Below, piece after piece: positions 1-42,417 of a DNA stretch of 42,618 bases. The notes beneath the pieces were generated by a model. That model was not told where the DNA came from. It worked only from the letters and a program-made list of their open reading frames with translations, and searched no databases. The DNA comes from a virus (Duplodnaviria > Heunggongvirae > Uroviricota > Caudoviricetes). Both the position numbers and the translations under genes were made by a program. The stretch is from the IMG/VR virus record IMGVR_UViG_2529292830_000018; one strand, given 5' to 3'. Within the stretch, counting starts at the first letter, position 1, and each line of letters begins with the position of its first letter.

Positions 1-1158
1 ATGCTCACCGTTAAGCAGATTGAAGCAGCAAAGCCGAAAGAAAAACCATACCGCCTACTCGATGGTAATGGCCTGTACCTTTATGTCCCTGTATCAGGGA
101 AAAAGGTATGGCAGCTTCGCTACAAGATTGACGGTAAGGAGAAAATCCTGACTGTCGGAAAATATCCGCTAATGACTTTGCAGGAGGCAAGGGATAAAGC
201 ATGGACTGCGAGGAAAGACATCTCGGTTGGCATCGATCCGGTAAGGGCGAAAAAGGCTTCGTCTAACAACAATTCCTTTAGTGCGATTTACAAGGAATGG
301 TACGAGCACAAGAAGCAAGTCTGGTCAGTAGGCTATGCAAATGAACTTGCAAAAATGTTTGACGACGACATTTTACCTATCATCGGCGGCCTTGAAATTC
401 AGGATATTGAGCCGATGCAACTGCTGGAAGTAATCCGCAGATTTGAAGATCGAGGTGCAATGGAGCGAGCCAACAAAGCCCGCAGAAGATGCGGCGAGGT
501 TTTCCGTTACGCTATTGTCACTGGTAGGGCTAAATATAACCCGGCACCTGACCTTGCTGACGCCATGAAGGGATACCGCAAGAAGAACTTCCCGTTTCTT
601 CCAGCAGACCAGATCCCGGCATTCAACAAAGCACTTGCAACATTTTCAGGAAGTATCGTATCGCTCATTGCGACCAAAGTTTTACGCTACACAGCCCTAA
701 GAACGAAAGAGCTTCGTTCCATGCTATGGAAGAACGTCGATTTTGAAAACAGGATTATCACCATCGACGCCAGTGTGATGAAGGGCCGCAAGATTCATGT
801 AGTACCGATGTCAGACCAGGTGGTTGAACTTCTCACTACGCTAAGCTCAATCACCAAACCAGTATCAGAGTTTGTTTTTTCCGGGCGCAACGATAAGAAA
901 AAGCCAATCTGCGAGAACGCGGTATTACTTGTGATCAAACAAATCGGCTATGAGGGTCTGGAAAGCGGTCACGGATTCAGGCATGAATTCAGCACGATTA
1001 TGAACGAGCACGAATGGCCTGCTGATGCTATTGAAGTGCAACTGGCACATGCCAACGGCGGTTCTGTGCGTGGAATTTACAACCATGCTCAGTATCTCGA
1101 TAAACGCAGAGAAATGATGCAATGGTGGGCGGACTGGCTTGATGAAAAGGTGGAGTGA
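1..1158 (+). CDS. int: Tyrosine recombinase / prophage integrase (P4/IntS-type)
   Basis: 385-aa ORF; N-terminal MLTVKQIEAAKPKEKPYRLLDGNGLYL and C-terminal catalytic region (HGFRHEF...RGIYNHAQY) typical of P4-family integrases; recalled as closely similar to E. coli CPS-53 IntS. Identity from memory, not searched. Confidence 0.9.
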   Translation: MLTVKQIEAAKPKEKPYRLLDGNGLYLYVPVSGKKVWQLRYKIDGKEKILTVGKYPLMTLQEARDKAWTARKDISVGIDPVRAKKASSNNNSFSAIYKEWYEHKKQVWSVGYANELAKMFDDDILPIIGGLEIQDIEPMQLLEVIRRFEDRGAMERANKARRRCGEVFRYAIVTGRAKYNPAPDLADAMKGYRKKNFPFLPADQIPAFNKALATFSGSIVSLIATKVLRYTALRTKELRSMLWKNVDFENRIITIDASVMKGRKIHVVPMSDQVVELLTTLSSITKPVSEFVFSGRNDKKKPICENAVLLVIKQIGYEGLESGHGFRHEFSTIMNEHEWPADAIEVQLAHANGGSVRGIYNHAQYLDKRREMMQWWADWLDEKVE

Positions 1159-1427
1159 TCCACCTTAACCACTATCGAAGAGCACAAAGCCTAGCAATCC
1201 AGTGCAAAGCTTGGTGTGTCTCCGTTTTGTATCACCAGTCACAGCACGCCATAGATAGAATGCTGACTTGCTTGATGTGTCTGCGGATCGCGATCCTTCA
1301 GCAATTTTCACAACTTGCCATCAAACATCCAATGGCAACGCCTTATCGTCATGTTGCGCATTTACAAAATGCAATATAAATATGTTAATTTATTATAGAA
1401 ATCACATAACGTTACGAGGGGTACACT

Positions 1428-3173
1428 GTGGGGATTTTTTTACTAGGCCGCAAGTTCGAAGGATCAAGCTTACTTTTTGATAAGGGACGCTTAATTTTAC
1501 AGAACAGCGTTGATGGAAATGTCTTCCTTGTAGTTGAGAAAGGAGGAAATCGAGCGTTTCTTCATACTGGTGAAAAATTTATAGATTTTGTTAGAGTTGG
1601 GCACTTGTCACATTTGAAATGCTATCTCTCACGTGAGAGCGACAGACTTTTATACTGCGTTTCATCATTAGGTGATGCTATTGAGAAGACAGTAACAGCA
1701 AACAGAACAAAAGCAAGTGGATGGGAAACATTTGATATGCTTCCTGCAAAAGACTTAAGCGAATCATCCATTAATCAAATAGAAATGCTTAAGGGAATAT
1801 ATTTTAAAAATGATGACTTAACATCTGTTTTCAACAGAATTGTTAGATCAGATTTGATTGACAAAGGAAGAACGATTGAAAAGCTAATTGAAATAATGAG
1901 CATCGACGATAAGGCATATATCTCTTATCATCTATCTAAAAACATCAGTGAATTAGCAACGCTTTCTGATATTTCAGGTGATGCGCTATTTAAAGCATTT
2001 GTTTCAAACCTAACCAACTACAGCAAAAAAATATCCGTCATAGATGAAAAACTTGATTTTTTATCTAAGCTTTCGAACCCAATCATTTCTAAAAACAGCT
2101 GGGTTGAACTAATTCATAATTTAAGAAAAATATCTCCACCAAAACATAAATCATGCATTGTTGCAACATGCAAAAATGAAGGTGTTTATCTTGTTGAGTG
2201 GATTGCTTACCATCTAAGCATTGGATTTGATGCAATATTTATATATTCTAATGATAATGATGATGGTTCTGACGAACTACTTAATAACCTTCATAATGAA
2301 GGAATCATATACTACATAAAAAACATTGTTGGAGATGGTGTTAGTGCACAAAACAAGGCTTATGCTCATGCACTAACAATTAACAAGGAAGTTCTAAATT
2401 ATGAATGGAGTCTTTTCATTGATATAGATGAATTTTTTGTTTTAAACGAATTCATGTTTTCTTCCATCACTGATTATCTAGACTGGCAAAACAAAAATGA
2501 AACTGACGCAATTGCTTTAAACTGGATGTTTAGCAAACCAGTTGAAAATAGCGACTGGATAAACAATCCAATCACTAAAAGATTGCCATATACTAATAAA
2601 GAAGCAAGCGCTCATATCAAAACATTTTTTAAGCCTCACAAATTCTCAGGCTCAACACCTCATTTCCCATTGTGCAATAGCAATTATAAGTTCGCATATA
2701 GAGACTCTTCAGGTAACATTCATGAAAAGTCAATCACAAAAAATGATTTATCATTTTCTAACAAACCACAAAACTCACACGCTTACATTATTCATTACTT
2801 CAATAGAAGTATAGCTGAGTTTATTTGGAAATACTCTAAAAACAGAGGTGATCACCCAAACACTAAAAGCGGAAACGACTTTACAGAACACTTATTTCAG
2901 TTCCTTAACTTCTTCACATCATCATTAGACTCACCACGGTTCGTGGAGAATGAATCAATTGCTAAAATGACTGGTGTTATTGATTCAAAAATTAGCGAAA
3001 TATTAGCAATCGAATCGATACAAATTGCGTATGAGAATGTTAAGAACAGGACAAGAGAGCGTTATGAATTAATCGAGCCTTTATTTTGGGAGTATTTAAA
3101 GGAAAACATCAACTCAGAAAAAAATAAAGACTCAATTTCAGAGTTTATATCTAGATTTAACGAAAAAGCTTAA
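1428..3173 (+). CDS. Glycosyltransferase-like protein (GT92/DUF23-like central domain), strongly AT-rich
   Basis: 581-aa uninterrupted ORF in very AT-rich DNA; motifs CIVATCKNEGVYLVEWIAYHLSIGFDAIFIYSNDNDDGSDELL and LFIDIDEFF resemble GT-A glycosyltransferases of the GT92 type. Track start is GTG at 1428 preceded by GAGGGG; true start uncertain. Confidence 0.5.
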   Translation: MGIFLLGRKFEGSSLLFDKGRLILQNSVDGNVFLVVEKGGNRAFLHTGEKFIDFVRVGHLSHLKCYLSRESDRLLYCVSSLGDAIEKTVTANRTKASGWETFDMLPAKDLSESSINQIEMLKGIYFKNDDLTSVFNRIVRSDLIDKGRTIEKLIEIMSIDDKAYISYHLSKNISELATLSDISGDALFKAFVSNLTNYSKKISVIDEKLDFLSKLSNPIISKNSWVELIHNLRKISPPKHKSCIVATCKNEGVYLVEWIAYHLSIGFDAIFIYSNDNDDGSDELLNNLHNEGIIYYIKNIVGDGVSAQNKAYAHALTINKEVLNYEWSLFIDIDEFFVLNEFMFSSITDYLDWQNKNETDAIALNWMFSKPVENSDWINNPITKRLPYTNKEASAHIKTFFKPHKFSGSTPHFPLCNSNYKFAYRDSSGNIHEKSITKNDLSFSNKPQNSHAYIIHYFNRSIAEFIWKYSKNRGDHPNTKSGNDFTEHLFQFLNFFTSSLDSPRFVENESIAKMTGVIDSKISEILAIESIQIAYENVKNRTRERYELIEPLFWEYLKENINSEKNKDSISEFISRFNEKA

Positions 3174-3238
3174 TCGATTTTCTGCGGAGGTAATCCACCT
3201 CCGCTATTTTCTAATACATTGTGTGATTTACAATATTT

Positions 3239-5503
3239 TCATGTCGATGAGTTAATTTCCTCAATGATACGCTTCAGGATTTCATTATTTCTGCGTTGTA
3301 ATGCAGCTTCAAGGACTAAAGCCTCTTCATAACGAATACCATAACGTGAGCCTGCCGGAGTGACCAGAATATCTTCATATTCTGGTTCTGCCTCTTCTTC
3401 ATACTCTTCTTCTACTTCTTGAAACTCTGTCTCGATGTACTCCTCTTCTACATCTTCAACTACAGGAACGCTTACGAATGGATTTTGCGCAAAAGGTGAA
3501 CCATCTTCATTAAGAACAGGTATCATTTCCATTTTTGGAGTCTGATACTCTTCATTCACTACTCGTTTAATCCGTGTTCCGTCTTCCAGTACCTCATCCT
3601 TTAATACCTGACGACTCTCAGTAACCATCACTGGTTTGCTTACAATTCGAGTTTTAGTAACCTGCACTGGAACTGTTGTTATGCGAGTTTTAGTAACCAT
3701 TACACCTTCGTTTGTCTGAACCTTAGTATATTGATCATCCCACTCGTCAAAGCAAAAGAATCCAAATCGGTGCACATCAAGCCCATGACGTTCAAACGCC
3801 TCCTTTGCACGTTGAGCTATTACGCCAAAATGCCAACGAGCTCCGTCTTCCCCTTTTTCTTCTGTTCTGTCAAGATACTGAAATTGAACGAAGTCAACCT
3901 CTGACCATGCGTCAAGTATTGTATCAGTGATTTCAAGAGGTGCAGTTTTAGCTCGCTCATCTGAAGTAACGGTAAAGGCTGTTTGAGTGAATCCACCAGA
4001 CCACACACGACCAGCAGTTCCGACCGTGCTGTTACTGTTCTGTGATAATGGTGCAATAGATGAGTCTACTATTACAATGCCATCCCCTTTTGGAGATAGC
4101 CTCAAATGAATATCTTTATCGCTTCCAGCAACGCCAACAGCAGGAGCATTAGATTCTGTATGCGAGCGCATGGATAGATAATTGGCAGGAACTGTAGGCC
4201 CAGACTCTATGGCAAATATAGGCAACCCAGACGATAATCGTGTAAATACTACGCCATTATCACTAAATAACATTCTGGTTGATCTGGTTGCATCCTCCAA
4301 AACAGAGAGTATTTCAGAAGTTTTCTGATTTAAATTGTTGTACCAGGTCATTGAGTGCCTATTACCAAAAGCAATTGCCACACCTTGACCTGTTGATTCT
4401 CCATCGGTTCCTTTAAGGCTATTACTGCCAAATACGATGCCCTTCAGAAAGCGCGCTGTTTTCCCAGCAGTTTTGTCGTTAGCTATTATTCCAATTGCTG
4501 CCGATGCAGCATTCAACACTTCTCCAGCTTGGGTTAATTCACCACCTGAGCCTAACCATAATGCGTCAGTCTGACCGTTGGGGAACATTGAATTAGGATA
4601 CATTTCACGCTCATTCCCCCTGTTTGCTATATCAAGTTCAAGACCGTGACTTGCTCCTATTGTTCCTGCATTGCGTATAGCTGAACCGTACAAGGCCCAC
4701 ACACTTGATCGTGAGCCAGATGTATCATCGTTTATCGCAGTACCTGCCACCCCTAATGCAGCACCGCCTGCACCACCGAGGGCAGTGTGTGCCGACCCGT
4801 AAACACCTATGCCGTCAGGTGGCGCAATAAATGTATTTCTACAGTGTCTTTCGAGATAGTAAAATATATTATTACCTACACCTGACAACCAAGGTACCTG
4901 ACGCAGCCAGTATCCACCTATAAATGAAACCCCCATCTCCATTTCCCATGATGTAAGGGGATCAGACACTACATCTTGGGTTAGTTTGTATGTGCCCGCT
5001 GGGATATAAATTTTACTTTTCGTGGCATTGGCAGCCAGAAACGCCGCAGTTGAATCAAGCACACCAGTAGGATCAGCACCTCCTGCAAAACCACTCCAAG
5101 TAACAGGCTTTGCTAATCCTCCGACAAATCCAGCTCCACCAGGACCCTCCAGTTCAGATCGCAGTTGATCAGGGTCATACTTCAGCACATTAGGAAAATA
5201 GAACTGCTGCGCACCATATGCATCATAAACAGCCATAGAATGGCCTTGCACAGTTACAAACTTGGCAATCTGTCCGTTATATACCGGATATCCAGCAGCG
5301 TTAATGATGATTGGTTGCGATACAGGAACGTGAGAGCCGTCTTCGTTCTCCACATAAACCTGAATCTGGTTTTCAGGATTTACCGGGTCAGTGTCAATTT
5401 TACCGATATAAATCTTTCCATTAGCTACGGCTTTAAAAGAACGAGCCATAGTGAAGAGTTGCGAAGGCATGCTGACTATAACATTGGCTGTAATGTCTGT
5501 CAT
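3239..5503 (-). CDS. Tailspike protein: P22 gp9-like head-binding N-terminus, distinct central domain, C-terminal S74-type intramolecular chaperone domain
   Basis: N-terminus [61 protein letters not shown] matches the P22 tailspike head-binding domain from memory; C-terminal ~150 aa ([15 protein letters not shown]...[10 protein letters not shown]...acidic tail) resembles the autoproteolytic chaperone domain of endosialidase/L-shaped fibre proteins. Confidence 0.85.
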
Positions 5504-5561
5504 TTAATTTGCTCCAGATACAAGGAATCGCCGTAGCATGGCTACGGTGAATTTTGGGCAT

Positions 5562-5584
5562 AAAAAAACCCAGCCGAAGCTGGG
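5562..5584 (-). terminator. Rho-independent terminator downstream of ant
   Basis: Stem CCCAGC/GCTGGG with loop CGAA, followed on the minus strand by a run of 7 T. Confidence 0.6.
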
Positions 5585-5603
5585 TCGTTGCGTTGGTTAT
5601 CTG

Positions 5604-6527
5604 TCAGTAGTTATGTACTGAAGGAGGTAATTCTTTATTCTTAAGTCTCATCCATGCGGAAAGATTCGTTGGTCCGTCTGGCTCATTAATATCAACATCT
5701 CGTGTGTGATTGATTAAAACGTCTCTCGCCATTCCAATAACATACGAGAACTCATGACCGTAGTCGTAGCATCTGCCGGAATAGTTAGACTGAATTTGTT
5801 TTAGCGCCGGATACAGTTCGCGGAATAATGCCTGTGAGCGGTTGGCATAATCCCATAACCATACAAGGCTGTTTGCTTCTTTTGCAGAAAGCTCGTTGGT
5901 TTTCTTCTCTTGTTTGCCAATGAACTCACCTTCAAGTGGAACTCGAGCTGCAAGTGATAGTGCTTCGGTAAACTGCTCCTCACTGATTTCTTTGTACGAA
6001 CATCCAAAATGGGATTTTAGTGACGACCACATGGTGATCATCGCCTTAGCCTGTTTTTCTTTTGGCAGAGACTGACCGCGACTCATGACGAGTTGTTTAA
6101 TGGCTTCCTGCTGTTCAGTGGTGATTTTACCCGGCAACGCCTTTTTAGCTTTGCGTGGGTTAACTACATGGCCTTTAGTCCAGTACTCGTAGAGCACATC
6201 GTCACACTCTTCCTGATACTGGATTACCTTGTCGCGGATTTCAGGGCGGACTTTGTTAGGACTGATGCTGTTCAACCAAGCTGCCAATTTTCGTAAAGCC
6301 ATACAAATCATGGCTTGCACCCCACCGGCAGAAGGTATGGTGATTTCCACCATACCCTTCGAGAAGCGTTGAGAAATCTTCTTATGTTGAGATTTCCAGT
6401 CTAGCCCCATTCCCTCAACGATAGGTTTCATTGGGGTATACGGTTCGCCGTTGTGATTGACAACATAAAGCTCTGCGCCGTGGAATGGTACATTGATAGT
6501 AGATACTGCTGTTGCTATACTTTTCAT
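5604..6527 (-). CDS. ant: Antirepressor Ant (P22_AR N-terminal domain type)
   Basis: 307 aa; N-terminal ELYVVNHNGEPYTPMKPIVEGMGLDWKSQHKKI resembles the P22 antirepressor N-domain; sits downstream of an arc-like gene and opposite mnt, as in P22 immI. Confidence 0.8.
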   Translation of the reverse strand: MKSIATAVSTINVPFHGAELYVVNHNGEPYTPMKPIVEGMGLDWKSQHKKISQRFSKGMVEITIPSAGGVQAMICMALRKLAAWLNSISPNKVRPEIRDKVIQYQEECDDVLYEYWTKGHVVNPRKAKKALPGKITTEQQEAIKQLVMSRGQSLPKEKQAKAMITMWSSLKSHFGCSYKEISEEQFTEALSLAARVPLEGEFIGKQEKKTNELSAKEANSLVWLWDYANRSQALFRELYPALKQIQSNYSGRCYDYGHEFSYVIGMARDVLINHTRDVDINEPDGPTNLSAWMRLKNKELPPSVHNY

Positions 6528-6625
6528 GTCGTTAATTCCTATGCGTGGTTTTACGATACCGAAGCCCTGACTGTTCCCGCAGTTGGGGCTTCACTGTTTT
6601 GATTTCTTTGCCGCATCCAAGCGAA

Positions 6626-6766
6626 TCACACCGTTATCCCCTCTCTCCTCAGGCTGTCCAGCACCCGTTTAATTACTTCTGCGCTGAATGAGCGACACTC
6701 TTCCTTTGCTTTTTCTTCAAGAATTTTTTCTAGCTTCTCTGGCATACGCAGTGTTTTTACCTTCAT
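6626..6766 (-). CDS. arc: Arc-like ribbon-helix-helix repressor (46 aa; below the ORF-track size cutoff)
   Basis: Translated by hand: MKVKTLRMPEKLEKILEEKAKEECRSFSAEVIKRVLDSLRREGITV; RBS GGAGGA precedes the ATG at 6766; size and position match P22 arc upstream of ant. Confidence 0.6.
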   Translation of the reverse strand: MKVKTLRMPEKLEKILEEKAKEECRSFSAEVIKRVLDSLRREGITV

Positions 6767-6776
6767 TGCATCCTCC

Positions 6777-6840
6777 GTTGTATGTGGTACGCATACATAG
6801 TATGTAGGTACGCATTGATAGTCAATAGATACCTACATAT
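6777..6840. promoter_or_regulatory. Divergent arc/mnt control region with nested palindromic operators
   Basis: Perfect 10-bp inverted repeat TATGTAGGTA (6801-6810) / TACCTACATA (6830-6839) enclosing inner palindrome ATTGA-tag-TCAAT (6814-6826); second palindrome TATGT..ACATA at 6781-6799. Confidence 0.55.
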
Positions 6841-6871
6841 CCTGTGGTAAAAAATTATTCAGGATGCGCCG

Positions 6872-7123
6872 ATGTCTGATCGTAAGTACAAAAACCCTCA
6901 AGTGAATCTGAGGCTTCCTGTAGAGATAAAGGAACGTCTTATTGAACTGGCTGAGGCTAATTCTCGTTCATTAAATGCTGAGATGGTCGCGGCACTTGAA
7001 GCGTGGACCGAAAAAAATAAACACATTCAAGCACTAGACCTTGCAACTATAGCATCACGATTGATAGATCTTGAACACGATGTTGAGACGCTAAAGACCA
7101 TGTATGGTAAGGATGCAAAATGA
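6872..7123 (+). CDS. mnt: Mnt-like ribbon-helix-helix repressor
   Basis: 83 aa, the same length as P22 Mnt; RHH N-terminus (PQVNLRLPVEIKERLIELAEANSRSLNAEMVAALEAW); divergent from arc-ant. Confidence 0.65.
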   Translation: MSDRKYKNPQVNLRLPVEIKERLIELAEANSRSLNAEMVAALEAWTEKNKHIQALDLATIASRLIDLEHDVETLKTMYGKDAK

Positions 7124-7329
7124 ATAAAAAACAGTTTATTAAGTCAACAACGTCAAGCAAGGAAGAGCTAGAGAAAGAGCTAAACTCCCTGAAATATGCT
7201 CTGTGTCTGGTTTACTCAAGACTGCCAATGGAAGATAAAAACGCCATTTACAATGAAATGATTAGCAGCCTTGATTTTAACGATAGAGACCTAGCATCCC
7301 ACCTCAACAGCTTCCGCGTCCCTGAGTAA
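7120..7329 (+). CDS. Hypothetical protein translationally coupled to mnt
   Basis: 69-aa ORF whose ATG overlaps the mnt stop (ATGA at 7120-7123). Confidence 0.4.
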   Translation: MNKKQFIKSTTSSKEELEKELNSLKYALCLVYSRLPMEDKNAIYNEMISSLDFNDRDLASHLNSFRVPE

Positions 7330-7489
7330 TTCTGTTGCGGATTTGCTTCTTGCGGTGGTTTAAGCTGGAGAGCTTGGCTTCTGCTTCTGATATTTGCGCA
7401 TCAAGATCTTTAAGCTCAAGATCTGAAAGTCGCTGGTCAAGCAGGGTTTGGTTCAACTCAATGTTGTTCAGGCGTTCTTCTATGGTCAT
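7304..7489 (-). CDS. Hypothetical small coiled-coil protein
   Basis: Start chosen at MTIEERLNN (ATG at 7489), preceded by AAGGAGAAATC; the track's longer ORF begins at 7537. 3' end overlaps the convergent ORF 7120..7329 by 26 bp. Confidence 0.35.
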   Translation of the reverse strand: MTIEERLNNIELNQTLLDQRLSDLELKDLDAQISEAEAKLSSLNHRKKQIRNRITQGRGSC

Positions 7490-7630
7490 GATTTCTCCTT
7501 GTTGAGGTTGATGTGAAACGATTGATTGTATACGCACTCTTTTGTTAGCTAGTAGCTTTGCTTAATCGCAAGATAAAGTTTCTGATTAATCCCTAAAAAT
7601 CAAAAAATAAAGTTAAAACAGGTACATGAT

Positions 7631-7834
7631 ATGGAATGGATCATAGGATTTGTTGTTCTTATCTTCATAGCCAGTATGTTTAAACCAAGAAGTTGCGATA
7701 TCTGTGGTGCTGGATTTAAGAAAAAGTACTTCACATGGACTATCGATGGAAAGAAACAGCATCTTTGTCCGTACTGCAACAGTAAAATGGAGAGACGCAA
7801 CAGCGATAGGCGCTTTAAGGATCGATTTGGTTAA
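7631..7834 (+). CDS. Small membrane protein with C-terminal zinc-ribbon motif
   Basis: 67 aa; hydrophobic N-terminal helix (IIGFVVLIFIASMF) then CDICG...CPYC; followed by a hairpin terminator. Confidence 0.4.
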   Translation: MEWIIGFVVLIFIASMFKPRSCDICGAGFKKKYFTWTIDGKKQHLCPYCNSKMERRNSDRRFKDRFG

Positions 7835-7848
7835 CCATTTTATCTCCA

Positions 7849-7876
7849 ACAAAAAACCCACCTGACGGTGGGTTTC
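7849..7876. terminator. Bidirectional rho-independent terminator
   Basis: Stem CCCACC/GGTGGG (7857-7872), A-run upstream and T-run downstream; lies between convergent genes 7631..7834 (+) and 7881..8849 (-). Confidence 0.6.
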
Positions 7877-7880
7877 ATAA

Positions 7881-8849
7881 TTAGATTTCTGGTTTCATTC
7901 TTCCGAAAACCTTTTCTATTCCTTTTTCGTATTCTTCTCTTGTCTCACTCATCGCTGCGACACCAAGAAGCTTACCGATATGCTGACGCAAAGCCTTGAC
8001 ACCAATTTCAGAAAGGAACAGATGCAACTTATCAGATTGTTTTCCGTTCTCGTCTCGGCTGGCTCGAATCTGTTCAAGGATTTTACCTTTACTCTTTGCT
8101 AGCGGGGGGTATATCTGCATGTTGGTTAGCTGCCCAAAACGAATAGGCCGTCCTTTCTCTGGCCTATTCAGGCCGTACAGTCGATACCACTCCTCGTATA
8201 GCTCATCTGGAAATTCCTTTTCATATTGACGAGCCTCTTCACGAACAAACGCTTTGAACTCGTCAATGACAGCCTGAACTTCTGGACGATAACCAGCAAG
8301 CGCATACGCAACCCCCTTAATTCCCGCCTTAGCGGAGGCATTAATAAGTCTCTGTGCTGCGGCGGCTGCCTTTAACCGTGATTGTGGTAGATCGTCATTA
8401 TCTTTGGCTTCTATTAGTGCCCTACCAATATCAACAATTGCTGTAATGTCATAACCTAACGCTTGATGAACGGTTTTAGACTTCGAAGTAAGTTGAAATT
8501 TATAGGGATTTTCCATTTTTCGCTGCAATTCTAGATCTCGGTATTTGCTCATATACTGAGCGCCAAGCAGTTGATCTAAATCCCTGGCATGTTCACCAAT
8601 CCCTAGCAACTGAGATAATCCAGTTTTCGTAACAACGACAGTTTTCGACTCGTCATCCAGTACATAACATTCAGCATCAATGCCAAAATCATCTAAAAAG
8701 TTACCACGATGAGTTGCCCTGAGAATCTTACTTTTCCATCTTGCAGCAGCTGCTTTCTTTGCTATTTCAGAACGCTGCTCTTTAGTCAGCGACTTTGCGC
8801 GAGCGATCCCGCCCTTAGCTTTCCCTTCGCCACTTTTCTTTTCAGTCAT
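7881..8849 (-). CDS. Hypothetical phage protein with lysine/alanine-rich putative DNA-binding N-terminus
   Basis: Start chosen at MTEKKSGEGKAKGGIARAKSLTKEQRSEIAKKAAAARW (ATG 8849); the track ORF extends to 8912 but would cover the operator-like repeats. Occupies the gene16-to-mnt interval where P22 carries sieA. Confidence 0.55.
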   Translation of the reverse strand: MTEKKSGEGKAKGGIARAKSLTKEQRSEIAKKAAAARWKSKILRATHRGNFLDDFGIDAECYVLDDESKTVVVTKTGLSQLLGIGEHARDLDQLLGAQYMSKYRDLELQRKMENPYKFQLTSKSKTVHQALGYDITAIVDIGRALIEAKDNDDLPQSRLKAAAAAQRLINASAKAGIKGVAYALAGYRPEVQAVIDEFKAFVREEARQYEKEFPDELYEEWYRLYGLNRPEKGRPIRFGQLTNMQIYPPLAKSKGKILEQIRASRDENGKQSDKLHLFLSEIGVKALRQHIGKLLGVAAMSETREEYEKGIEKVFGRMKPEI

Positions 8850-8850
8850 A

Positions 8851-8940
8851 ATGCAAGCACCTTTGTTGTGATGTATGCTTGCATTATATACACTGTACAC
8901 ACATACAAGCAAGCATAAAACTAAAACAAAATGCTTGCAT
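8851..8940. promoter_or_regulatory. Two operator-like inverted repeats in a divergent promoter region
   Basis: ATGCAAGCAC (8851-8860) / ATGCTTGCAT (8875-8884) with a 14-bp spacer, and AAGCAAGCAT (8907-8916) / ATGCTTGCAT (8931-8940) with a 14-bp spacer; centres about 56 bp apart. Confidence 0.5.
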
Positions 8941-9004
8941 TACAACCGCGCTACTCCAACTACACATTATCATCTGGTATCCTGCTCAAAACTAAGGAGG
9001 TTGG

Positions 9005-9395
9005 CGTGAAGCAATTTCTTACTGTTATGTTCTTATTCATATCTTTTGGGGCTACAGCAGAGTGCTGGGTCGTTGGAGATATGCGCGGAATAAGCTATTC
9101 AGAACGAAATAATTTCCATCCGGAAGAAGATGGTTTTAGTGGAACATTCATCATTAAGACAAACGGTGAAGATGCCAGCATCACATATTCTGGGACAGAT
9201 GCGGGCGGCATGGCTTACAAAGCATTGTCTAAAAACTCCATCATAGGAATCGGCGCGAATGGCGAAACTCAACGCGTTATCGACTCATGGGTAATACATC
9301 CTACTGGAACAGTTTTAATGTCAAAAACCATTTCCGGTTATGGAAATATGGATTCAACCAAAGCTTTTGTTGGAAAAGTAAAAAGAAAATGCTAA
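9005..9395 (+). CDS. Hypothetical secreted protein (signal peptide)
   Basis: GTG start at 9005 preceded by AAGGAGG; N-terminus KQFLTVMFLFISFGATA-ECW looks like a Sec signal peptide; AT-rich; orientation opposite to the flanking phage genes. Confidence 0.5.
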
Positions 9396-9405
9396 GGATG
9401 TTGAT

Positions 9406-9612
9406 ATGAAAAAATTTACTATTGGGTTATTTGCAATCTTTTTACTTGTTTTGTCTGCATTTACTGGTTATGGGGTTAAATATTCATCAATAACTGACGG
9501 TAACAAGATTGAATGTAAATACCTAAGCGCTTCTGGAAAATTCTCCAGAAATTATTGGTACTCGGATAATGGGATCATGGGGATTAGCAATTGTCCTTTA
9601 GTTGACAGATAG
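9406..9612 (+). CDS. Hypothetical small secreted protein (signal peptide)
   Basis: 68 aa; MKKFTIGLFAIFLLVLSAFTG signal-peptide-like N-terminus; immediately downstream of 9005..9395. Confidence 0.45.
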   Translation: MKKFTIGLFAIFLLVLSAFTGYGVKYSSITDGNKIECKYLSASGKFSRNYWYSDNGIMGISNCPLVDR

Positions 9613-9672
9613 CCATCCTTGGCTTTATGGGGATTAACATGGTAACGGTTGGTTGGATTATCTCGTTCCTTG

Positions 9673-11826
9673 TTACATCTTTTGGTCGCCGTCACTGGCT
9701 GTAGTATCTTGCTGAGATAACCATGTAATAATCCCAGTGCGAGCAATGGTTTTTGCTTCATCTGTTGATAGGGTTTTCTCCCATCTCTTAAATGCCCCAG
9801 ATTGCATCAGTTTCCTTTCTATTGCGCGTCTCACTTCTGCTCTGTCTACTGGTGCGTTTTGCAGGCGAAATAGCATTGATTTAAACTCAGGAGAAGACAG
9901 TAGAGCATCAGCAGCCTTTATCCTGCTTGTTTTCCCTGACATCAATGCGGACGTTATCACCCCTGTTGCACCTACACCAGGAAGACCAGATAAGCTTGTA
10001 ACACCTTCCGCCGCAGCAGCTTTTGAGGCTATTCCATAAATTTTTGCTAGACTACCCTTTTCCTTCAGAAAGTTATTAACTTGCTGATCCACAAGGCTGC
10101 TAGCATACTGCTTACCAGTATTGAGTCTATTCATAGCCTTGGCTGCTTGATAAATCGTATCAAGGCGCTTTGATGCATCTGTGCCAATAGCATCACGGAG
10201 AGCCTTCATATTGGCCCCATTGCGTGACATTCCGTTATACCATTTTACAAATCCATCAACCCCTAATTGCTGACCTGGTGATTTAGCATAGCTGGTAAAT
10301 GCTTTATTCATTGAGGTGAGCGCAACTTCCTGCCGCATATCCTTTGGAATTGACTTCATTAATTGCCTAAAGTCACCACCGTTTCCTTTTGCCATATTAA
10401 CAACGGCACTTTCAACTTTTGGAATTGCTGATTGCTGAAGTTTTCTACCCAAAACGGTTACGGCATCATCTTCAATGGATTTTCGTGTTTTTACCAACTC
10501 CTTACCAAGCGTCCATAACTCCCCTGCGCCATATTTTTCTGCGACAGCCTGTTGGTCATCTGTTATAGCTGCATATAACTTTTTAAGAACACCTGTTTCT
10601 TCATCCTTGAATGGGCCAGAGCCTTTGCCAATAGCTTGCCCAACCTGCTTTCTAGCGAGATCTAAACGCCCATACGTTGGCAAGGTGTTTGGATCAAGTC
10701 GGTTCAATGTCCGCTTCATTATTGGAGATAATTCATCAATTCCACCTATGTCATCAGCAAAATCCTCTAAAAAATTCAATGTATTGGTTGCCTCAATACG
10801 GTCTCTTACTGGAACCTTTTCGGCAATTTTGTTGTAGATGTTATCTGACTGATTTTGTAATGATGAAATGGTTTTATCAAAATTATCTGCAAGCCTGTCA
10901 GAAACCAGTTGCTTATCAAGGTTTCCCCCAAATGAAGTTATCATTTCATCAGCTTTTCTTCCTAATTCAGTAATAAATCGCTTATGTGCCTCACTAATCT
11001 CTGTTCCAGGGAGGCTTGCCACTGCATTATCAAGAGCCCTGACAGCAGGATTATTAGAGATCATTCCTGGAGTGGCATAATTTTCCAGTTCTAGCTCACG
11101 GATGGCATTTATCGCGTTAAAATCAGGATTAACTTCATCGGCGAAACCTTGAATAGCTCGTTGCCCGCCAATAAATTTATTATCCATTGCGCCAGCAGCT
11201 TTCTTTAACGTTGCTTTAGATGATTTACTCCCCATCCCTACGGATGAGCGATAAATATCCCCGGCACTATTTTTAATTTTTCCTGCAATCTTCCCAAGCG
11301 CTGGACCAACAATCTCGGCTACAGGGCCAGCCACAGCGCCAATAGCAGCGCCGGAAGCAACATCGCTATTTGTTCCATTGGCTACAATAGCCCCTTCTCC
11401 AGCACCAAGCCCTGCGGCGGCAGCCAGCCTTGCCGCTCCTTTCGGAACCTGAGAAATAATCCCACCACCACTAACAAATGGCGCTGCTTGTCCAACAAAC
11501 TCACCAACATCTTGTGCGGTTGATGGTTTTGCCGCTAACTTCTGCTGTAGAGACTGAATTGCGGCTTGCTCTTCTGGTGTCATATCCTGAAACAGGCCAA
11601 CACCTTTACCAACATCCATCAATCCACTGAGAACGCCATACATAAAACGGTCGAAACCGTTAGCATTATTAACAACATTTTCCTGTCTGGAATTTTCCTC
11701 TGGTGAAACCAAAGGAGATTGCTGCTGTTCTGGTTGGGAATCAAGCACAAAGCCATCAGGAAGTTGTGAGTTATCAGGCTGTTCATCCAGAACAAACCCC
11801 TCTGGTAAACCTACATTGGTTGCCAT
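9673..11826 (-). CDS. Ejection (injection) protein, P22 gp16-like
   Basis: 717 aa; position after the gp20 homologue in P22 gene order; N-terminal tandem [11 protein letters not shown] / [11 protein letters not shown] repeat. Confidence 0.75.
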
Positions 11827-13160
11827 TGTCCGTTCCTGTAAATAATTTTCTGACCAGTTTTAGGATTTTTCGCGGTCATACCTTCTCGAAATGTTTGACC
11901 GCCAGATGTTGCTTGTTGTGTCTGTTGTTGCGCAGGCTGCTGAATATCTTCATACAGCTTGGCTTTTCTGGATTGCAATTGCTTAGTTAGTCCGCTGGGG
12001 AGAGAATCTCCATAAGTTGAAAGATAATCATCCATTTGCTGATTAAACTTTTCGCCTTCAGTATTTGCCATCAGTTTTGAGGTGTTGATTAAGTCTTGGA
12101 CTTGCTCATTATTCAGCATCTTGCCGTTAGATAATTGGCTAACATAGTTACCAAGTGTGCCGAATATTCCATCAGTGCGTTTTACCTGCACTTGCTCACC
12201 TTCGCGTACCACAGATTGCGGATCCAGCGATTTCATATAGTTGAAAATCATTCCCAACTGCGCGGCTGGAGTGTTGCGCTTCCCAAGGGCTTGTAGGTTG
12301 TCAGAAGCACTGCGCATTGCAGAATAATTCTTTGAGAACCCATTAATATCACTATTCAGATCTCGAACAAGTTTTGGGTCAATCTTTCCGCTTTCCTGTT
12401 GCTTCATACCTAATTCCTGCAACTTCAGGGCGACGTTATCATTATGCATTTGTGCCCGCTGAGCCCTGTCTAGTTGAGCGTTCTGGATATTTGCCCATCC
12501 TCTCGCATTCTCCATGTCAGCCTGACGGATGCTTTCATCCAATCGCCCTTTCTCAAGTTGGCGACCAACCATCTTATCCTGATAATCCAGCATTTTATCC
12601 GGACCAACAGCCCCTAGCGTCATAGTAGTCAGCATGTGTGATAGCTGCTCTGGATTCTGAATACCTGTCTGAATCATCCAGTCAGCATTCGCCCCCACGC
12701 GATTTAACCTGTCCTTGTTGTCAGTAATGAATTTACTGTAGGCTTCCGGTCCCTGAGAAAGAGCGACGTTAGCCCTCATGGCTAAATCGCCCATATCGTT
12801 GCGTTGCTGCTCATTAAGACCGGAAAACGCCTGTTGTGCCTGTGCAACAAACGCTGGATTTTCCTTGGCAAACTTAAATAGTCCCGATGGATCACCAGAA
12901 GCCCATGCATCAGCATGAACCTTATTGAACGCACTAATAGCTTTCTGTTGCTGTTCCTGCTTATAAATATCAGCAACTCCAGCCAGACCACGTAACGCGG
13001 TCAGACCGACGTTATTTGCACCTGATCGAGCCAGTTCATTGTTTTCGCGAATCAGACCAAGCGTTGCGTTAATGTCGCTTGCCTTTGGTGCATTCTCATT
13101 TTGCGTACCAATGCCAGCCAGAAAACCACCAGAATTAATACCCTGTTGCCACGTAGCCAT
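11811..13160 (-). CDS. Ejection protein, P22 gp20-like
   Basis: 449 aa; between gp7 and gp16 homologues; P22 gene order. Confidence 0.75.
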
Positions 13161-13170
13161 TGATTAACCC

Positions 13171-13863
13171 TTAAAACAGTGAACCAAGCAGACCAAGACC
13201 AGCACCAATACCAGCCCCCCACGGAGTTGATAGCTCGAGAGCACTGGCTATGCCACCACCCAAAAGCGCACCGGATGCAGCACCACTAACACCCTGCTGC
13301 AATGCTGACGGTCGGTTGGCGTTTGCCGCCGCCAGTGCTGCGCTTTGCTGCGAAATCTGACTCATGTTGTTGGCATATGTTTGCCCGGCGTTTGCCTGTC
13401 CCTGAAGAGCGCCAAGACCGATATTTGCCAGGTTGTTGTAATTGTTCATTTGTCCAGATAGCCATTGCTGACCAAGCGTTGGTGCGATTGTTGCTAACTG
13501 ATTACCGGTTGCAGTGGAACCCAATCCACCTGTTGCTTCCGCTGCCGCCAGACTCTGATAGCGAGCCTGACCAGCAAGATCTTTGTACTGCTGAGAGTTG
13601 TAATACTGGTTAAGCGCCTGACCTTGCCCTTCCAGAGACGATAAGTTCTCGAGGCTGCCGAGATACTTATCAGCCAGAGGAGTAAACGGCTTCAGGTTGT
13701 TCATGATGGTGTTGAACTGCTTATTCTGCAGGTCTGCGGCATACTTCTGAGCTTCTGCGGCATACTTTGCGCTTTTATCAGAGCTGCCACCTTTCCCGCC
13801 TTTTTCAGGGCAATAAGGTTCCTCGCCGCGCAGTTTTCTGCCCAGCTTAAATGCATATAACAT
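13171..13863 (-). CDS. Ejection protein, P22 gp7-like
   Basis: 230 aa; MLYAFKLGRKLRGEEPYCPEKGGKGG and C-terminal STPWGA...GLLGSLF closely match recalled P22 gp7. Confidence 0.85.
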   Translation of the reverse strand: MLYAFKLGRKLRGEEPYCPEKGGKGGSSDKSAKYAAEAQKYAADLQNKQFNTIMNNLKPFTPLADKYLGSLENLSSLEGQGQALNQYYNSQQYKDLAGQARYQSLAAAEATGGLGSTATGNQLATIAPTLGQQWLSGQMNNYNNLANIGLGALQGQANAGQTYANNMSQISQQSAALAAANANRPSALQQGVSGAASGALLGGGIASALELSTPWGAGIGAGLGLLGSLF

Positions 13864-13865
13864 GG

Positions 13866-14321
13866 CTATCTCCCGTGATTCAGGAAGTCGATTAGTTCTT
13901 CGCGTGTGGCGCTGTAAAACGTCACGTCATCCACGCCTTTGAAGTATTTATTGATGGTTCCTACACGCTTAAGGCCAATCATTGCGCAGTACATCTGCCC
14001 GTGGCGGAATTTGCGTGCAGCGAACGATGTGACGCACTGAACGGTGGTGTTAGTCAGAATGTATCGCCAGAACGCCAGCCCGATTTCCTTGCTGAAGCCG
14101 CGAATCTCTGGCAGGTACATGGCGTGGCAATCGAATGTCAGCGGCTGAATCTCCTGATAGTAAACAATGCCGCCGAACTGCCCGTGCACGTTAACCTCAA
14201 AGTAACGGCATTCAGGCTTGTAGTCGTATCCATCGCCGTTGTTGCTCCCGGCAATAATGTCAGGGTGATTTCCGACTGCTTCTATCAGGTCGATGTTTCG
14301 CGTTGGTTTGAATGTAATCAT
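13866..14321 (-). CDS. Ejection/assembly protein, P22 gp14-like
   Basis: 151 aa; position between gp26 and gp7 homologues. Confidence 0.55.
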   Translation of the reverse strand: MITFKPTRNIDLIEAVGNHPDIIAGSNNGDGYDYKPECRYFEVNVHGQFGGIVYYQEIQPLTFDCHAMYLPEIRGFSKEIGLAFWRYILTNTTVQCVTSFAARKFRHGQMYCAMIGLKRVGTINKYFKGVDDVTFYSATREELIDFLNHGR

Positions 14322-15022
14322 CAGTCAATCAGCCCATGTAATCTAAGTGCTGTTTCAAGCGCCAGAATACGCTGCCGCGCCTGCTCCAAACCTGTAGCGA
14401 TAGCTGCGACTTCGGATTGTGTGTACGTAGTGCCGACCGTGTATGACTGGTTAGCGTTGAATGAGCCAAGAAGAGGTGTACCTGTGGCTGCAGTCCATCC
14501 GGTATTTCTTGCTCCAACAACCTGAATTCCATCAACTGAATATGATGTTTTTACATCCAGCGGTGACGCAAGAGACTGCGATTCTGTTACGGTTTTCGAT
14601 ACGTAATCACTCTTAATGCCAGAGACATCGTTTTCTACGTCATCCAGTCTTTGGTCAACAGTGACCAGATGCCCCTGAATATCGATAACCTCATCCAGCA
14701 AGTAATCAACATCGCTACGCAGTACGACTATCTTCCCTTCGGCGGTTGTTAACCTGACCTCAAGGAGATTTATCGCTTTTGTGTTTGCGGTGATTCTTGC
14801 GTCGTGATCAGCCAGTTCGACGTCCTGTTCATCGTTTTTTACCTGGGCTTCGTAAGCGCCCTGACCAGCATGATTTGCCTTCCCGGCAATTGCGCCGACA
14901 TCAGCTCCCTGATTTATGACATATAGCAGGTAAGACTGGCTGAATATATTGCGTGGCAAAATTGAAGCATCAAGGCGCGTAGCCTGAACCGCGACAGGAT
15001 TATTCAGTGATGAATCCGCCAT
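14321..15022 (-). CDS. Tail needle protein, P22 gp26-like
   Basis: 233 aa, the same length as P22 gp26; [25 protein letters not shown] and C-terminal [25 protein letters not shown] match the recalled P22 needle. Confidence 0.85.
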
Positions 15023-16440: not shown

Positions 16441-16449
16441 TTATTCACC

Positions 16450-16911
16450 TCACGTACTCGGATCATCTTTCTCGATGTAAAACCGATTCCACGTAAACGC
16501 GCTTTTGTTACCACTGCCGCGAGGCATGTCATTTCGCCGCTCAAGTGGTGGTATTTTGGTTAAAGCGATACAGATTGTTTGATATGCACTGTCAGCAGCG
16601 GTAAGGAGAGCGTCTGACGGCTGAATGACGTTGTCCATGCACGCTTGCACAGCGAGTTTCAAAGCGACGCCATCATTTGCCCATGCAGGGATACCTGAAT
16701 CATCGTCAGGTAACGGCATGATGCCGTTTTCTGTATCAGCAAACTGATACCCAAGCTCGATACCTTTCGCCTGCCATGCTGCCATCATGTCTTCGAGGTC
16801 ATTAATGGCATCTTCAATTGCCTGAGGGTCAGCATCTGTCAACGTGGCATTGGAATACAGCCCGGCTTTTCGTAAAGCCTTAAGAACGAGATCACCCTTC
16901 GTTTTCGCCAT
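16450..16911 (-). CDS. Head-to-tail adaptor, P22 gp4-like
   Basis: 153 aa; gene order between coat and gp10. Confidence 0.7.
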   Translation of the reverse strand: MAKTKGDLVLKALRKAGLYSNATLTDADPQAIEDAINDLEDMMAAWQAKGIELGYQFADTENGIMPLPDDDSGIPAWANDGVALKLAVQACMDNVIQPSDALLTAADSAYQTICIALTKIPPLERRNDMPRGSGNKSAFTWNRFYIEKDDPST

Positions 16912-17080: not shown

Positions 17081-17090
17081 TGTCTTCTCC

Positions 17091-17114: not shown

Positions 17115-17121
17115 ACCAAAA

Positions 17122-18381: not shown

Positions 18382-18399
18382 GCTTAATGCTCCGATAGG

Positions 18400-21582: not shown

Positions 21583-21583
21583 A

Positions 21584-42372: not shown

Positions 42373-42417
42373 ATTACCTGATTTGCAGGTTCGATTCCCT
42401 ATTCGGAGATAGCACTC

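Follow-up and report, generated by a model that had tools for sequence, protein, structure and literature searches.

A prophage gene between integrase and tailspike encodes a GT92-like glycosyltransferase that may modify a group 3 capsule of Escherichia coli

Introduction

Among surface polysaccharides, O-antigens are well-known targets of lysogenic conversion, through the Gtr and Oac enzymes. To our knowledge, the acetyltransferase NeuO is the sole conversion example for the kps-type capsules of Escherichia coli, and a limited literature search found no phage-borne capsule glycosyltransferase (GT) of the kind described here. The stretch of DNA analyzed (IMG/VR record IMGVR_UViG_2529292830_000018; 42,618 nucleotides, hereafter the window) contains one long, AT-rich gene directly downstream of a phage integrase gene, and the question that it raises is what its product does for the phage or for the lysogen. 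The original prediction recognized a GT at a conversion locus and framed the problem in terms of O-antigen modification. Here, we ask what kind of enzyme the gene encodes, whether it is kept under selection, and which glycan is its most probable acceptor. The features on which the discussion draws are collected in Table 1.

Table 1. Features of the integrase-tailspike interval and of the right prophage end, in window coordinates
Feature	Position	Strand	Basis
IntS-type integrase, left recombination arm of the slot	1..1158	+	ORF; CUS-3 identity
Leader of mosaic origin	1159..1427	+	blastn boundaries
GT coding sequence	1428..3173	+	581 aa, GTG start; dN/dS 0.085-0.10 vs phage-borne variants
Beta-trefoil, lectin/CBM-like domain, aa 1-108	1428..1751	+	
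All-helical linker or bundle, aa 112-236, joining lectin-like and catalytic domains	1761..2135	+	DSSP on models
GT-A catalytic domain, GT92-like, aa 240-480	2145..2867	+	
DxD(E) metal / nucleotide-sugar binding motif, D332-I-D334-E335	2421..2432	+	Alignments
C-terminal helical hairpin, aa 487-577, conserved in full-length family	2886..3158	+	Models, alignment
Intrinsic-terminator-like hairpin (GCGGAGGT-loop-ACCTCCGC) and T-rich tail	3184..3212	+	Sequence
Tailspike C-terminal part, aa 514-754, S74 chaperone and long acidic extension	3239..3964	-	Pfam, PDB matches
Tailspike receptor-binding, presumed depolymerase part, aa 114-513	3965..5164	-	Comparison with L009, L014
P22-type head-binding domain of tailspike, aa 1-113	5165..5503	-	PF09008, 223 bits
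attR core TTGCAGGTTCGATTCC, right prophage end	42383..42398	+	Identical to CUS-3 att core and part of argW tRNA

The Prophage and Its Conversion Slot

By sequence comparison, the window is a CUS-3-like (P22-like) E. coli prophage at argW. In the annotation of strain ATCC 43886, intS lies directly after a tRNA-Arg gene. Window positions 1-1192 are 97% identical to CUS-3 and backbone homology restarts at 5166; between them, at 1193-5165, neuO and the endosialidase part of CUS-3 are replaced by the leader, the GT, and the receptor-binding region of the tailspike. The same argW/intS position is occupied in K-12 by CPS-53, with the gene order intS-yfdG-yfdH-yfdI (gtr genes). That related prophages carry conversion genes here, as had been predicted, is borne out by these gtr genes and by O-acetyltransferases in sister prophages, and the location between integrase and tailspike likewise upholds the assignment to a conversion slot. 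The O-antigen framing that accompanied this assignment appears less apt, the association found below being with a K locus and not with O type.

A convergent tailspike gene (3239-5503, minus strand) follows the GT gene. Its head-binding domain has PDB matches to P22 and Sf6, and its Peptidase_S74 intramolecular chaperone (aa 514-575, nt 3779-3964) has PDB matches to the endosialidase chaperone. The receptor-binding part that lies between has no informative relatives among deposited phages or solved structures. The 3′ end of the tailspike gene forms the right recombination arm of the slot, in which either a GT or an acetyltransferase resides, and comparison of a yak strain with PK8276 puts the swap boundary near window position 3286.

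The Gene and Its Flanks

The long open reading frame noticed 3′ of int was also called by RefSeq, which annotates an identical coding sequence in ATCC 43886. A ribosome-binding site, GAGGGG, is found at 1416-1421, and the GTG start codon comes 6 nt further on. The gene is more AT-rich than the backbone, as first noted, with a GC content of 0.33 against 0.462 for the window and 0.473 for int. Among 50,697 phage records, DNA of the GT region had no match beyond the int flank and the GT protein had none; IMG/VR contains a single identical copy of the gene. A scan of genome contigs for relatives gave one match, which is alphaproteobacterial and 33% identical.

The leader carries traces of several sources. 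Its homology to CUS-3 runs to 1192, to K-12 CPS-53 to 1246, and to acetyltransferase-type sister prophages to 1301 (blastn), and homology specific to the GT variants begins at 1362-1377. Three expectations about this 269-bp segment were not borne out. It had been described as AT-rich, but its overall GC content is 0.42 and the AT-rich portion is confined to about the last 65 nt, the stretch shared with other GT variants. It had been credited with promoter-like elements, but a scan for sigma-70-type consensus sites came up empty in 1159-1427, and across 1100-3400 it returned four sites, compared to 8.9 ± 2.7 in shuffled sequences. Finally, the suggestion of a frameshifted gtrA/gtrB remnant in 1159-1427 found no counterpart in the sequence. 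A TTTACA at 1361-1366, picked out by eye as a possible promoter, is accompanied by poor -10 candidates only, and we discount it as evidence. At the other end of the gene, the terminator-like hairpin begins 10 nt past the stop codon. Phase-variation repeats like those of neuO are absent from the GT gene, in which Tandem Repeats Finder reported only an 11-nt, 1.9-copy match at 2987-3007, and they are also absent from the acetyltransferase genes of the sister prophages.

A Soluble, Four-Part GT92-like Enzyme

The AlphaFold2 model of the product (pLDDT 91.7) is soluble and globular and is built of four parts. The central region was correctly read as GT-A/GT92-like: Pfam PF13704 (Glyco_tranf_2_4, GT2 clan) matches aa 249-341 with 65.9 bits (gathering cutoff 27.5) and PF01697, which corresponds to CAZy GT92, matches aa 254-434 with 36.3 bits (gathering cutoff 23). 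A precomputed PF01697 assignment is present on nearly all homologues, and the solved structure nearest to the GT-A fold of the model is a GT92 enzyme. The residues of the DxD(E) motif (D332, D334, and E335) are conserved without exception in an alignment of 44 homologues, as are 19 further positions, and the motif is likewise invariant in the 10 close homologues. No membrane segment is present, the maximum 19-residue Kyte-Doolittle mean being 1.27, in keeping with the cytoplasmic type first proposed. On the model and the alignments together, we conclude that the product is a soluble, cytoplasmic GT92-like GT-A glycosyltransferase with intact catalytic motifs.

The regions flanking the catalytic domain, about 240 aa at the N-terminus and about 100 aa at the C-terminus, had been called unassigned, and they are indeed covered by no Pfam, NCBIfam, PHROG, or PADLOC family. 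The N-terminal module has almost no detectable relatives among 1.84 billion representative proteins, a PDB sequence search with the GT family profile returned nothing significant, and the fusion of a beta-trefoil to a GT92-like domain is without a solved relative by sequence. Within the beta-trefoil domain, R93 is invariant in the family alignments, and W99, E100, and F102 vary rarely or not at all; judging from the modeled fold, this domain presumably binds a glycan.

The structural neighbors of the model include SunS and ThuS, which are prophage-derived peptide S-glycosyltransferases, and prophage ends are common sites for defense genes. Both points would suit an enzyme that targets something other than a polysaccharide (a host or phage protein, phage DNA, or a small molecule) in anti-phage defense or counter-defense. 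We consider such a role very improbable. A defense function was looked for and rejected: PADLOC gave no family at E ≤ 1, NCBIfam gave none, and PHROGs gave only noise (E ≥ 0.013 over short stretches). The surface glycan, protein, DNA, and defense targets that were originally listed side by side thus fare differently, with the capsule homologues described next speaking for a surface glycan and nothing, the PADLOC search included, speaking for defense or DNA modification.

Homologues in kps Loci and the Probable Acceptor

All seven close nonphage homologues (P0004-P0010; 46-52% identity, full length) are encoded in region 2 of group-3-type kps loci, one of which (L006) has the complete kpsDMTE - region 2 - kpsC layout. 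The identity of 46-52% extends across 95-99% of the length, and mean column identity is 65% (alignment A3). These kps-borne genes lie between the gene for a GT92-like GT and either ugd or a block of three GT genes and rml genes, and they are similarly AT-rich (GC 0.29-0.32, compared to 0.33 in the phage gene). In metagenomic sibling loci, the gene order is GH99-like, GT413, GT574, ugd. At pheV, ATCC 43886 carries a group 3 kps locus that is organized like the loci of the homologues but does not include the 583-aa GT; the identity of the sibling loci to this host locus is 85% for the GH99-like protein, 57% for GT413, and 86% for ugd. Across the kps loci of the homologues, the neighboring GT is 28-57% identical to that of the host. 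Given this divergence and the 46-52% identity to the kps GTs themselves, sequence comparison suggests that the acceptor specificities of the phage and kps enzymes may have diverged. In PF9285, the same intergenic slot of the kps locus is occupied by an AlgX-like O-acetyltransferase, which marks the slot as a position for decorating enzymes. One conserved kps GT of ATCC 43886 is annotated as split; many genes in this assembly are flagged as frameshifted, and the split may be an assembly error.

ATCC 43886 is listed by ATCC as K98. A K98 reference locus has been sequenced (PMC13171606), and the K locus of the carriers is the "TBA_1" locus of Hong et al. (2023). In a survey of 5426 complete E. 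coli genomes, the TBA_1 locus was found in 13 and the GT in four, all of them among those 13, and a group 3 kps locus is present in every carrier genome. A single clone, ST1312, accounts for three of the four, so the association with the K locus rests on about two independent lineages. DNA for the receptor-binding part of the tailspike was present in 11 of the 5426 genomes, all with TBA_1 or a related K locus. The association of the GT with the K locus could reflect the host range of the tailspike alone and not the substrate of the GT.

These observations bear directly on whether the acceptor is the O-antigen or another undecaprenyl-linked glycan (enterobacterial common antigen or colanic acid), glycosylated on the cytoplasmic side before flipping in a non-Gtr form of O-serotype conversion. 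K-12 CPS-53 carries gtrABS in the same slot, and many P22-like tailspikes, with head-binding domains of the P22 and Sf6 kind matched here, are specific for O-antigen. The fnl/wbuC genes also occur in both carrier O types, and L-FucNAc chemistry, to which the composition of O25 provides the link, may be common to the two. Yet the rfb clusters located in two carriers differ, being O25 in one and O15 in the other, while the K locus is one and the same. No close homologue was found in a galF-gnd cluster, compared to seven of seven in kps region 2, and the tailspike has a chaperone of the endosialidase type, as in the capsule-specific tailspike of CUS-3. We regard an undecaprenyl-linked acceptor as unlikely.

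The kps region-2 homologues, the occurrence with a single K locus in strains of two O types, and the correspondence to the neuO slot of CUS-3 together point to the capsule. On these sequence relationships, we favor, with a probability of roughly 0.6, a lysogenic-conversion GT that acts on the group 3, ABC-transporter-dependent K-antigen capsule and not on the O-antigen.

Exchange in the Slot and Selection on the Gene

The slot holds an alternative gene in close relatives. In all six non-GT strains checked (five with TBA_1 and one with a related K locus), a CatB-type O-acetyltransferase gene lies between intS and the tailspike gene; its hexapeptide-repeat core resembles NeuO, and the relationship is distant. 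Within one clone (ST1312 ETEC O25, K locus TBA_1), this prophage slot contains the GT in some strains and the O-acetyltransferase in others. In the yak strain, the GT cleanly takes the place that the acetyltransferase has in PK8276, within a prophage remnant that is otherwise 99-99.9% identical between the two.

Is the GT gene then merely a passenger, captured recently from a kps locus along with the receptor-binding region and without a selected function in the lysogen? Its low GC content, like that of the kps homologues, would be expected of such a gene, as would a leader without a recognizable promoter, and in the yak-strain copy a frameshift replaces the last 14 codons. Against this stand a dN/dS of 0.085-0.10 at a dS of 1.0-1.7 relative to 74-76% identical phage-borne variants (three phage-borne lineages), catalytic and family-invariant residues that are all intact, and a ribosome-binding site and terminator that belong to the gene itself. 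The GT was moreover kept in a heavily decayed remnant after it had replaced the acetyltransferase by the clean swap just described. We therefore hold a passenger role to be quite unlikely. The gene is conserved and under purifying selection, and a fusion of pseudogene fragments is ruled out. The original prediction had named a nonconserved fusion of this kind, or the absence of a GT fold, as grounds for its rejection, and neither was what we found.

At two other loci (L009 and L014), receptor-binding parts that are 61-64% identical to that of the window adjoin convergent GT genes whose products are 74-76% identical. The phage contexts of the pairs differ, with a lambda-J-like tail protein beside one and UmuD-like genes upstream of another, and GT and receptor-binding part co-travel in three diverged phage loci. 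The pairing of alleles is not strict, as the yak strain has the same GT with another receptor-binding allele. A broader and more tentative reading, which we think somewhat less probable than even, is that a GT (or O-acetyltransferase) together with a tailspike receptor-binding region forms a mobile cassette for reading and editing the capsule, through which one kps genotype would yield several K-antigen variants. Its conserved recombination arms would be the sequence that flanks int on the 3′ side and the 3′-terminal stretch of the tailspike chaperone, and the cassette would pass between phage backbones that are not related and also enter prophage remnants already in decay.

Comparison with Known Systems

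The closest precedent for a capsule-modifying GT in this slot is NeuO of CUS-3 in E. coli K1. The backbones of the two prophages are about 95-97% identical over 19.5 kb, and both systems share the argW site, the slot between int and tailspike, a soluble cytoplasmic enzyme, a host with a locus for an ABC-transporter-dependent capsule, and a tailspike with an S74 chaperone. The differences are equally clear. NeuO is a left-handed beta-helix (hexapeptide-repeat) acetyltransferase, whereas the window gene encodes a GT-A fold; the GT gene is on the plus strand, codirectional with int, whereas neuO has the opposite orientation; neuO has the poly-psi heptanucleotide repeat, whereas the GT gene has neither this nor another tandem repeat; and the capsule of the NeuO host is group 2 K1, whereas the capsule type predicted for the window host is group 3 TBA_1. 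NeuO of CUS-3, integrated at argW, gives protection from K1 phages (PMC9659370; PMC13001214).

The GtrABC systems of P22, SfII/V/X, and CPS-53 (YfdGHI) likewise form a conversion cassette adjacent to the integrase gene, in CPS-53 at the same argW/intS position, and attach a sugar to a surface polysaccharide used as phage receptor, as we would expect of the window GT. However, Gtr enzymes act in the periplasm via Und-P-glucose, while the window GT would act in the cytoplasm on a kps-type polymer, and the serotype-specific Gtr transferase is membrane-embedded, in contrast to the single soluble enzyme here. That the GT stands without a flippase partner had been noted from the start, and the window has no homologue of GtrA, GtrB, or GtrC: in a tblastn search of the whole window with K-12 GtrA, GtrB, and GtrS (YfdG, YfdH, and YfdI), no match reached E ≤ 1e-3 and only noise fell in 1100-3300.

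Enzymes with related folds are more remote. TarP, the wall-teichoic-acid GlcNAc-transferase of Staphylococcus aureus prophages (PDB 6H1J and others), is 13-15% identical, a generic GT-A likeness; it has neither a beta-trefoil nor a helical N-terminal module and acts in a Gram-positive host on poly-ribitol-phosphate. The GT92 beta-1,4-galactan synthase GalS1 of poplar (PDB 8D3T) is 11% identical, and compared to it the window GT is bacterial or phage-borne, is soluble, and has the additional lectin-like and helical modules. Galactosyltransferase activity cannot be assumed from the GT92 likeness. The kps region-2 GTs (554-593 aa; plasmid and chromosomal K loci of E. coli, and Aeromonas) are collinear with the window GT over the full length and share its four-part build. 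Their genes lie in cis within K loci, between a wckN-like GT gene and ugd, whereas the window gene is carried by a prophage and the K locus of its host has no copy.

Capsule conversion by Acinetobacter baumannii prophages reportedly concerns Wzx/Wzy-dependent capsules. The capsule predicted for the carriers is ABC-transporter-dependent, and in contrast to A. baumannii its modification would need to occur in the cytoplasm. In A. baumannii, too, prophages convert the lysogen to another type of capsular polysaccharide (PMC13228068).

Proposed Function and Outlook

We propose that the CUS-3-like prophage carries the GT as a lysogenic-conversion "moron" gene. Its product would, in the lysogen, move a sugar from a nucleotide sugar onto the group 3 capsule, probably as a side branch or an extra residue, during assembly of the polymer at the cytoplasmic side of the inner membrane. 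Modification on this side would make a flippase or a periplasmic partner of the GtrC type unnecessary. Where sibling K loci have a transferase gene in cis, the phage would provide one in trans, and the expected outcome is an altered K antigen. Since the adjacent tailspike presumably recognizes the capsule that is modified, adsorption or depolymerization by the same and related phages would be expected to decrease. The logic would be that of capsule acetylation by CUS-3 NeuO and of O-antigen glucosylation by P22/Sf Gtr. In this scheme we infer the capsule as acceptor, as well as the donor sugar, the expression of the gene in lysogens, and the exclusion or serotype phenotype.

A phage GT acting on a group 3 capsule would, if confirmed, extend lysogenic conversion to glycosylation of a kps-type polymer. 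Should the GT and the acetyltransferase of the sister prophages both be active, K loci of identical genotype would give rise to different antigens and different phage susceptibilities, with consequences for in silico K typing, for the choice of vaccine antigens, and for phage or depolymerase therapy. If the more tentative reading of a mobile cassette is also true, part of the diversity of group 3 capsules would be determined by phages and invisible to typing of the kps locus, and a capsule-editing cassette would be a determinant of phage host range.

A glycosyltransferase gene in the neuO position of an argW prophage

The window represents a prophage integrated at the argW tRNA, and ATCC 43886 carries the same 2.08 kb, 99.6% identical, after tRNA-Arg and intS; the att core TTGCAGGTTCGATTCC is found again near the far end (see table). 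The backbone is that of CUS-3, a P22-like K1 prophage carrying neuO, with ~19.5 kb aligning at 87-98% identity. CUS-3 homology runs through int up to 1192 and restarts at 5166, exactly at the edge of the tailspike's head-binding domain, so that 1193-5165 (leader, glycosyltransferase (GT) gene, and receptor-binding and chaperone parts of the tailspike) stands where CUS-3 has neuO and its endosialidase. K-12 CPS-53, in contrast, has gtrA/B/S at this position. No Gtr gene or remnant was found anywhere in the window, which disposes of the gtrA/gtrB remnant considered for 1159-1427 in the original prediction. The promoter-like elements assigned to that leader found no support either, as a consensus scan gave 0 sites there and fewer across the full region than in its shuffles. 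The description of a long AT-rich ORF directly downstream of int was accurate, with a GC content of 0.33 versus 0.473 in int and 0.462 in the window as a whole.

Elsewhere, the structural genes (12502-23785) match CUS-3 at 95% identity, and blastn aligns little or nothing of 6594-12501, 26013-28505, and 30224-37784 with it, an alternation that is typical lambdoid mosaicism. One unmatched stretch holds a P63C-domain protein gene in the immI/ant region. Directly past the attR core lies a 66-codon ORF (MQHELQPDSLVDLKFIMADTGFGK...) that looks similar to TorI, the excisionase of KplE1/CPS-53; if it is TorI, a second argW element lying in tandem would have left a remnant here.

Features of the window, the GT protein, and the compared loci (L numbers)
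Feature	Location	Strand	Remark
int, integrase	1-1158	+	one side of GT ORF
GT ORF, 581 aa	1428-3173	+	GTG start, 6 nt 3' of GAGGGG
Terminator-like hairpin, T-tail	3184-3212		after GT stop codon
Tailspike gene, 754 aa	3239-5503	-	convergent with GT ORF
Tailspike aa 576-754	3239-3778		beyond S74 domain
P63C-domain gene	7881-8912		PHROG 2384
att core, second copy	42383-42398
66-codon ORF	42419-42618
Helical linker, all-helical	GT aa 112-236		AlphaFold2 model
Helical hairpin	GT aa 487-577		AlphaFold2 model
583-aa GT in kps slot	L006 10001-11752
Empty kps slot (TBA_1)	L021, between 15796 and 15845		nothing
AlgX-like O-acetyltransferase in kps slot	L025 14947-16227		PF9285
Split wckC-like GT; frameshifted O25 wzy	L021 13092-14011; L022 95-1157		ATCC 43886
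P0010 gene	L003, within 4377-14679		Aeromonas, GCA_041402505.1
Region of GT swap, yak strain	L002 8001-10123		boundaries ~window 1298 and 3286
CatB-type hexapeptide O-acetyltransferase, sister argW prophages	L017 5144-6073		exchanged for GT cassette
same	L018 5276-5920
same	L038 4393-4920
same	L039 4544-4924
same	L040 4270-4914
same	L041 4394-4921

Family, conservation, and predicted fold

The GT-A/GT92-like center with unassigned ends was recovered by Pfam, which matches only aa 249-434 (Glyco_tranf_2_4, 65.9 bits at aa 249-341, cut-off 27.5; GT92, 36.3 bits at aa 254-434, cut-off 23) and has no family over residues 1-240 or the last 100; NCBIfam, PADLOC, and PHROGs gave no further family. 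AlphaFold2 with the family alignment produced a model (pLDDT 91.7, pTM 0.89) in four parts, a beta-trefoil, a helical linker, a GT-A catalytic domain, and C-terminal helices. No segment is sufficiently hydrophobic to span a membrane, and no solved relative was found by sequence. A search of 5.8 billion proteins returned 127 relatives with two near groups, the phage-borne P0002 (76% identity) and P0003 (74%) and the seven full-length homologues P0004-P0010 (46-52%). The N-terminal module alone has only 4 matches among 1.84 billion representative proteins, and 50,697 phage genomes hold no relative. A 44-sequence alignment has 22 invariant positions, D332-x-D334-E335 among them, and dN/dS against the two diverged phage-borne variants is 0.085-0.10 (dS 1.0-1.7). 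This conservation, together with the full-length homologues, excludes a non-conserved fusion of pseudogene fragments, named in the original prediction as a refuting condition.

Homologues within capsule loci

The close non-phage homologues all lie in region 2 of group-3-type kps capsule loci. P0006 and P0008 belong to such a locus in E. coli, mostly plasmid-borne, ordered kpsDMTE, methyltransferase, GT2, GT92-like, 583-aa GT, ugd, 3-GT block, rmlBDAC, kpsC; P0004, P0005, and P0007 share this syntenic position, and P0010 comes from a polysaccharide gene cluster of Aeromonas that also contains ugd and genes of the GT2, GT92-like, and AlgX-like kinds. The more distant P0011 (33% identical) is outside any such locus. 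The P0010 gene has a GC of 0.29 against a genus mean of ~60% and is flanked by two ugd copies and the AlgX-like gene, which suggests horizontal transfer of the family among polysaccharide loci of distantly related genera.

The pheV island of ATCC 43886 carries a group 3 kps locus, named 'TBA_1' by Hong et al., with the order kpsDMTE, methyltransferase, GH99-like, GT413, ugd, 3-GT block, rfbBDAC, kpsC, kpsS. It is syntenic with the loci of the homologues and contains no orthologue of the 583-aa GT. Two metagenomic sibling loci show the "complete" version: L032 (GH99-like, 85% identical to the host's; GT413, 57%; P0005; ugd, 86%) and L034 (GH99-like, 82%; GT371; P0004; ugd). PF9285 has an AlgX-like O-acetyltransferase in the same inter-gene position. 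Between the wckN-like GT and ugd, this K-locus family has a slot of variable content, and Hong et al. call the wckN-udg interval a recombination hot spot. Because the siblings have the 583-aa GT, TBA_1 is without it, and PF9285 has an acetyltransferase there, the family behaves as an optional decorating enzyme of these K loci, and the prophage gives a copy to a host whose kps locus is without one. The slot mirrors the GT/acetyltransferase alternation of the prophage described below.

In the ATCC 43886 assembly, a conserved kps GT, the wckC-like member of the 3-GT block, is annotated as two separate ORFs, and the O25 wzy carries a frameshift flag; this leaves capsule and O-antigen expression in the strain uncertain. 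Many other genes of this assembly are flagged as frameshifted, and both defects may be sequencing errors.

Co-occurrence and cassette exchange

Of 5426 complete E. coli genomes, 13 have region 2 of TBA_1, and the only four with the GT are among these 13. Three carriers are one clone, ST1312 with O25, and the fourth is a yak strain with an O15 cluster. Since all four are TBA_1 while their O types differ, the GT tracks the K locus, not the O type, over only ~2 independent lineages. This association could reflect tailspike host range alone. Tailspike receptor-binding DNA is found in 11 of the 5426 genomes, ten with TBA_1 and one with a related K locus. The modest identity to the kps-borne homologues is a further caveat on the capsule reading.

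The tailspike joins a P22-type head-binding domain to an endosialidase-type S74 chaperone. Beyond the latter lie ~180 residues with a strongly acidic stretch, kept in the L014 tailspike and, as its extreme C-terminus, in that of L009. The P0002 and P0003 genes each converge on a tailspike gene, and the receptor-binding parts encoded there share 61-64% identity with that of the window; at one of these loci the N-terminus of the tailspike is not of P22 type and a lambda-J-like tail protein is encoded next to it, and the other has UmuD-like genes upstream where the window has int. Because diverged GT variants adjoin related tailspikes in such different contexts, the pairing outlasts transfer between phage backbones, and pairing of individual alleles is not strict.

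In all six non-GT strains checked (five TBA_1 plus HCM-25C-3, with a related K locus), the slot from intS to the tailspike contains a gene for a CatB-type O-acetyltransferase, whose hexapeptide-repeat core shares 47% identity with the NeuO core. Small indels that distinguish the strains (1-10 gaps in ~1 kb) make the annotated coding sequences vary from 126 to 214 aa, a length variation that may reflect phase variation, decay, or assembly error; these genes showed no tandem repeat. A decayed prophage remnant is common to yak strain QML220614 and chicken strain PK8276, with 99.0-99.9% identity on either side of the cassette. The two copies differ only by a clean exchange, with a 1984-bp GT cassette in the yak strain and one of 930 bp for the acetyltransferase in PK8276. 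The moron has therefore been exchanged and retained in a defective prophage. In the yak-strain GT, the last 14 codons are replaced by a frameshifted tail.

Proposed role in lysogens

The fold assignment is not new, since the protein already has the RefSeq label "glycosyltransferase family 2 protein". What appears new is the proposal that a prophage brings in, at the NeuO slot and as the other option beside an acetyltransferase cassette, a glycosyltransferase that decorates group 3 capsule; a limited literature search found no description of it, and a 2026 K-typing paper states that modifying genes outside kps are still to be identified. In a lysogen, the soluble GT92-like enzyme would add a residue from a nucleotide sugar to nascent group 3 capsule on the cytoplasmic membrane face, before KpsMT export, while holding the polymer with its beta-trefoil domain. 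The recurrent adjacency of homologues to ugd is at most a hint on the donor sugar. Such action would resemble that of TarP, a structural match whose biology in S. aureus parallels the proposed role. For the tailspike of this phage family, the altered K antigen would serve less well as substrate or receptor, leading to superinfection exclusion, and it would also differ antigenically; this would be the NeuO logic established elsewhere (PMC9659370), carried out by glycosylation.
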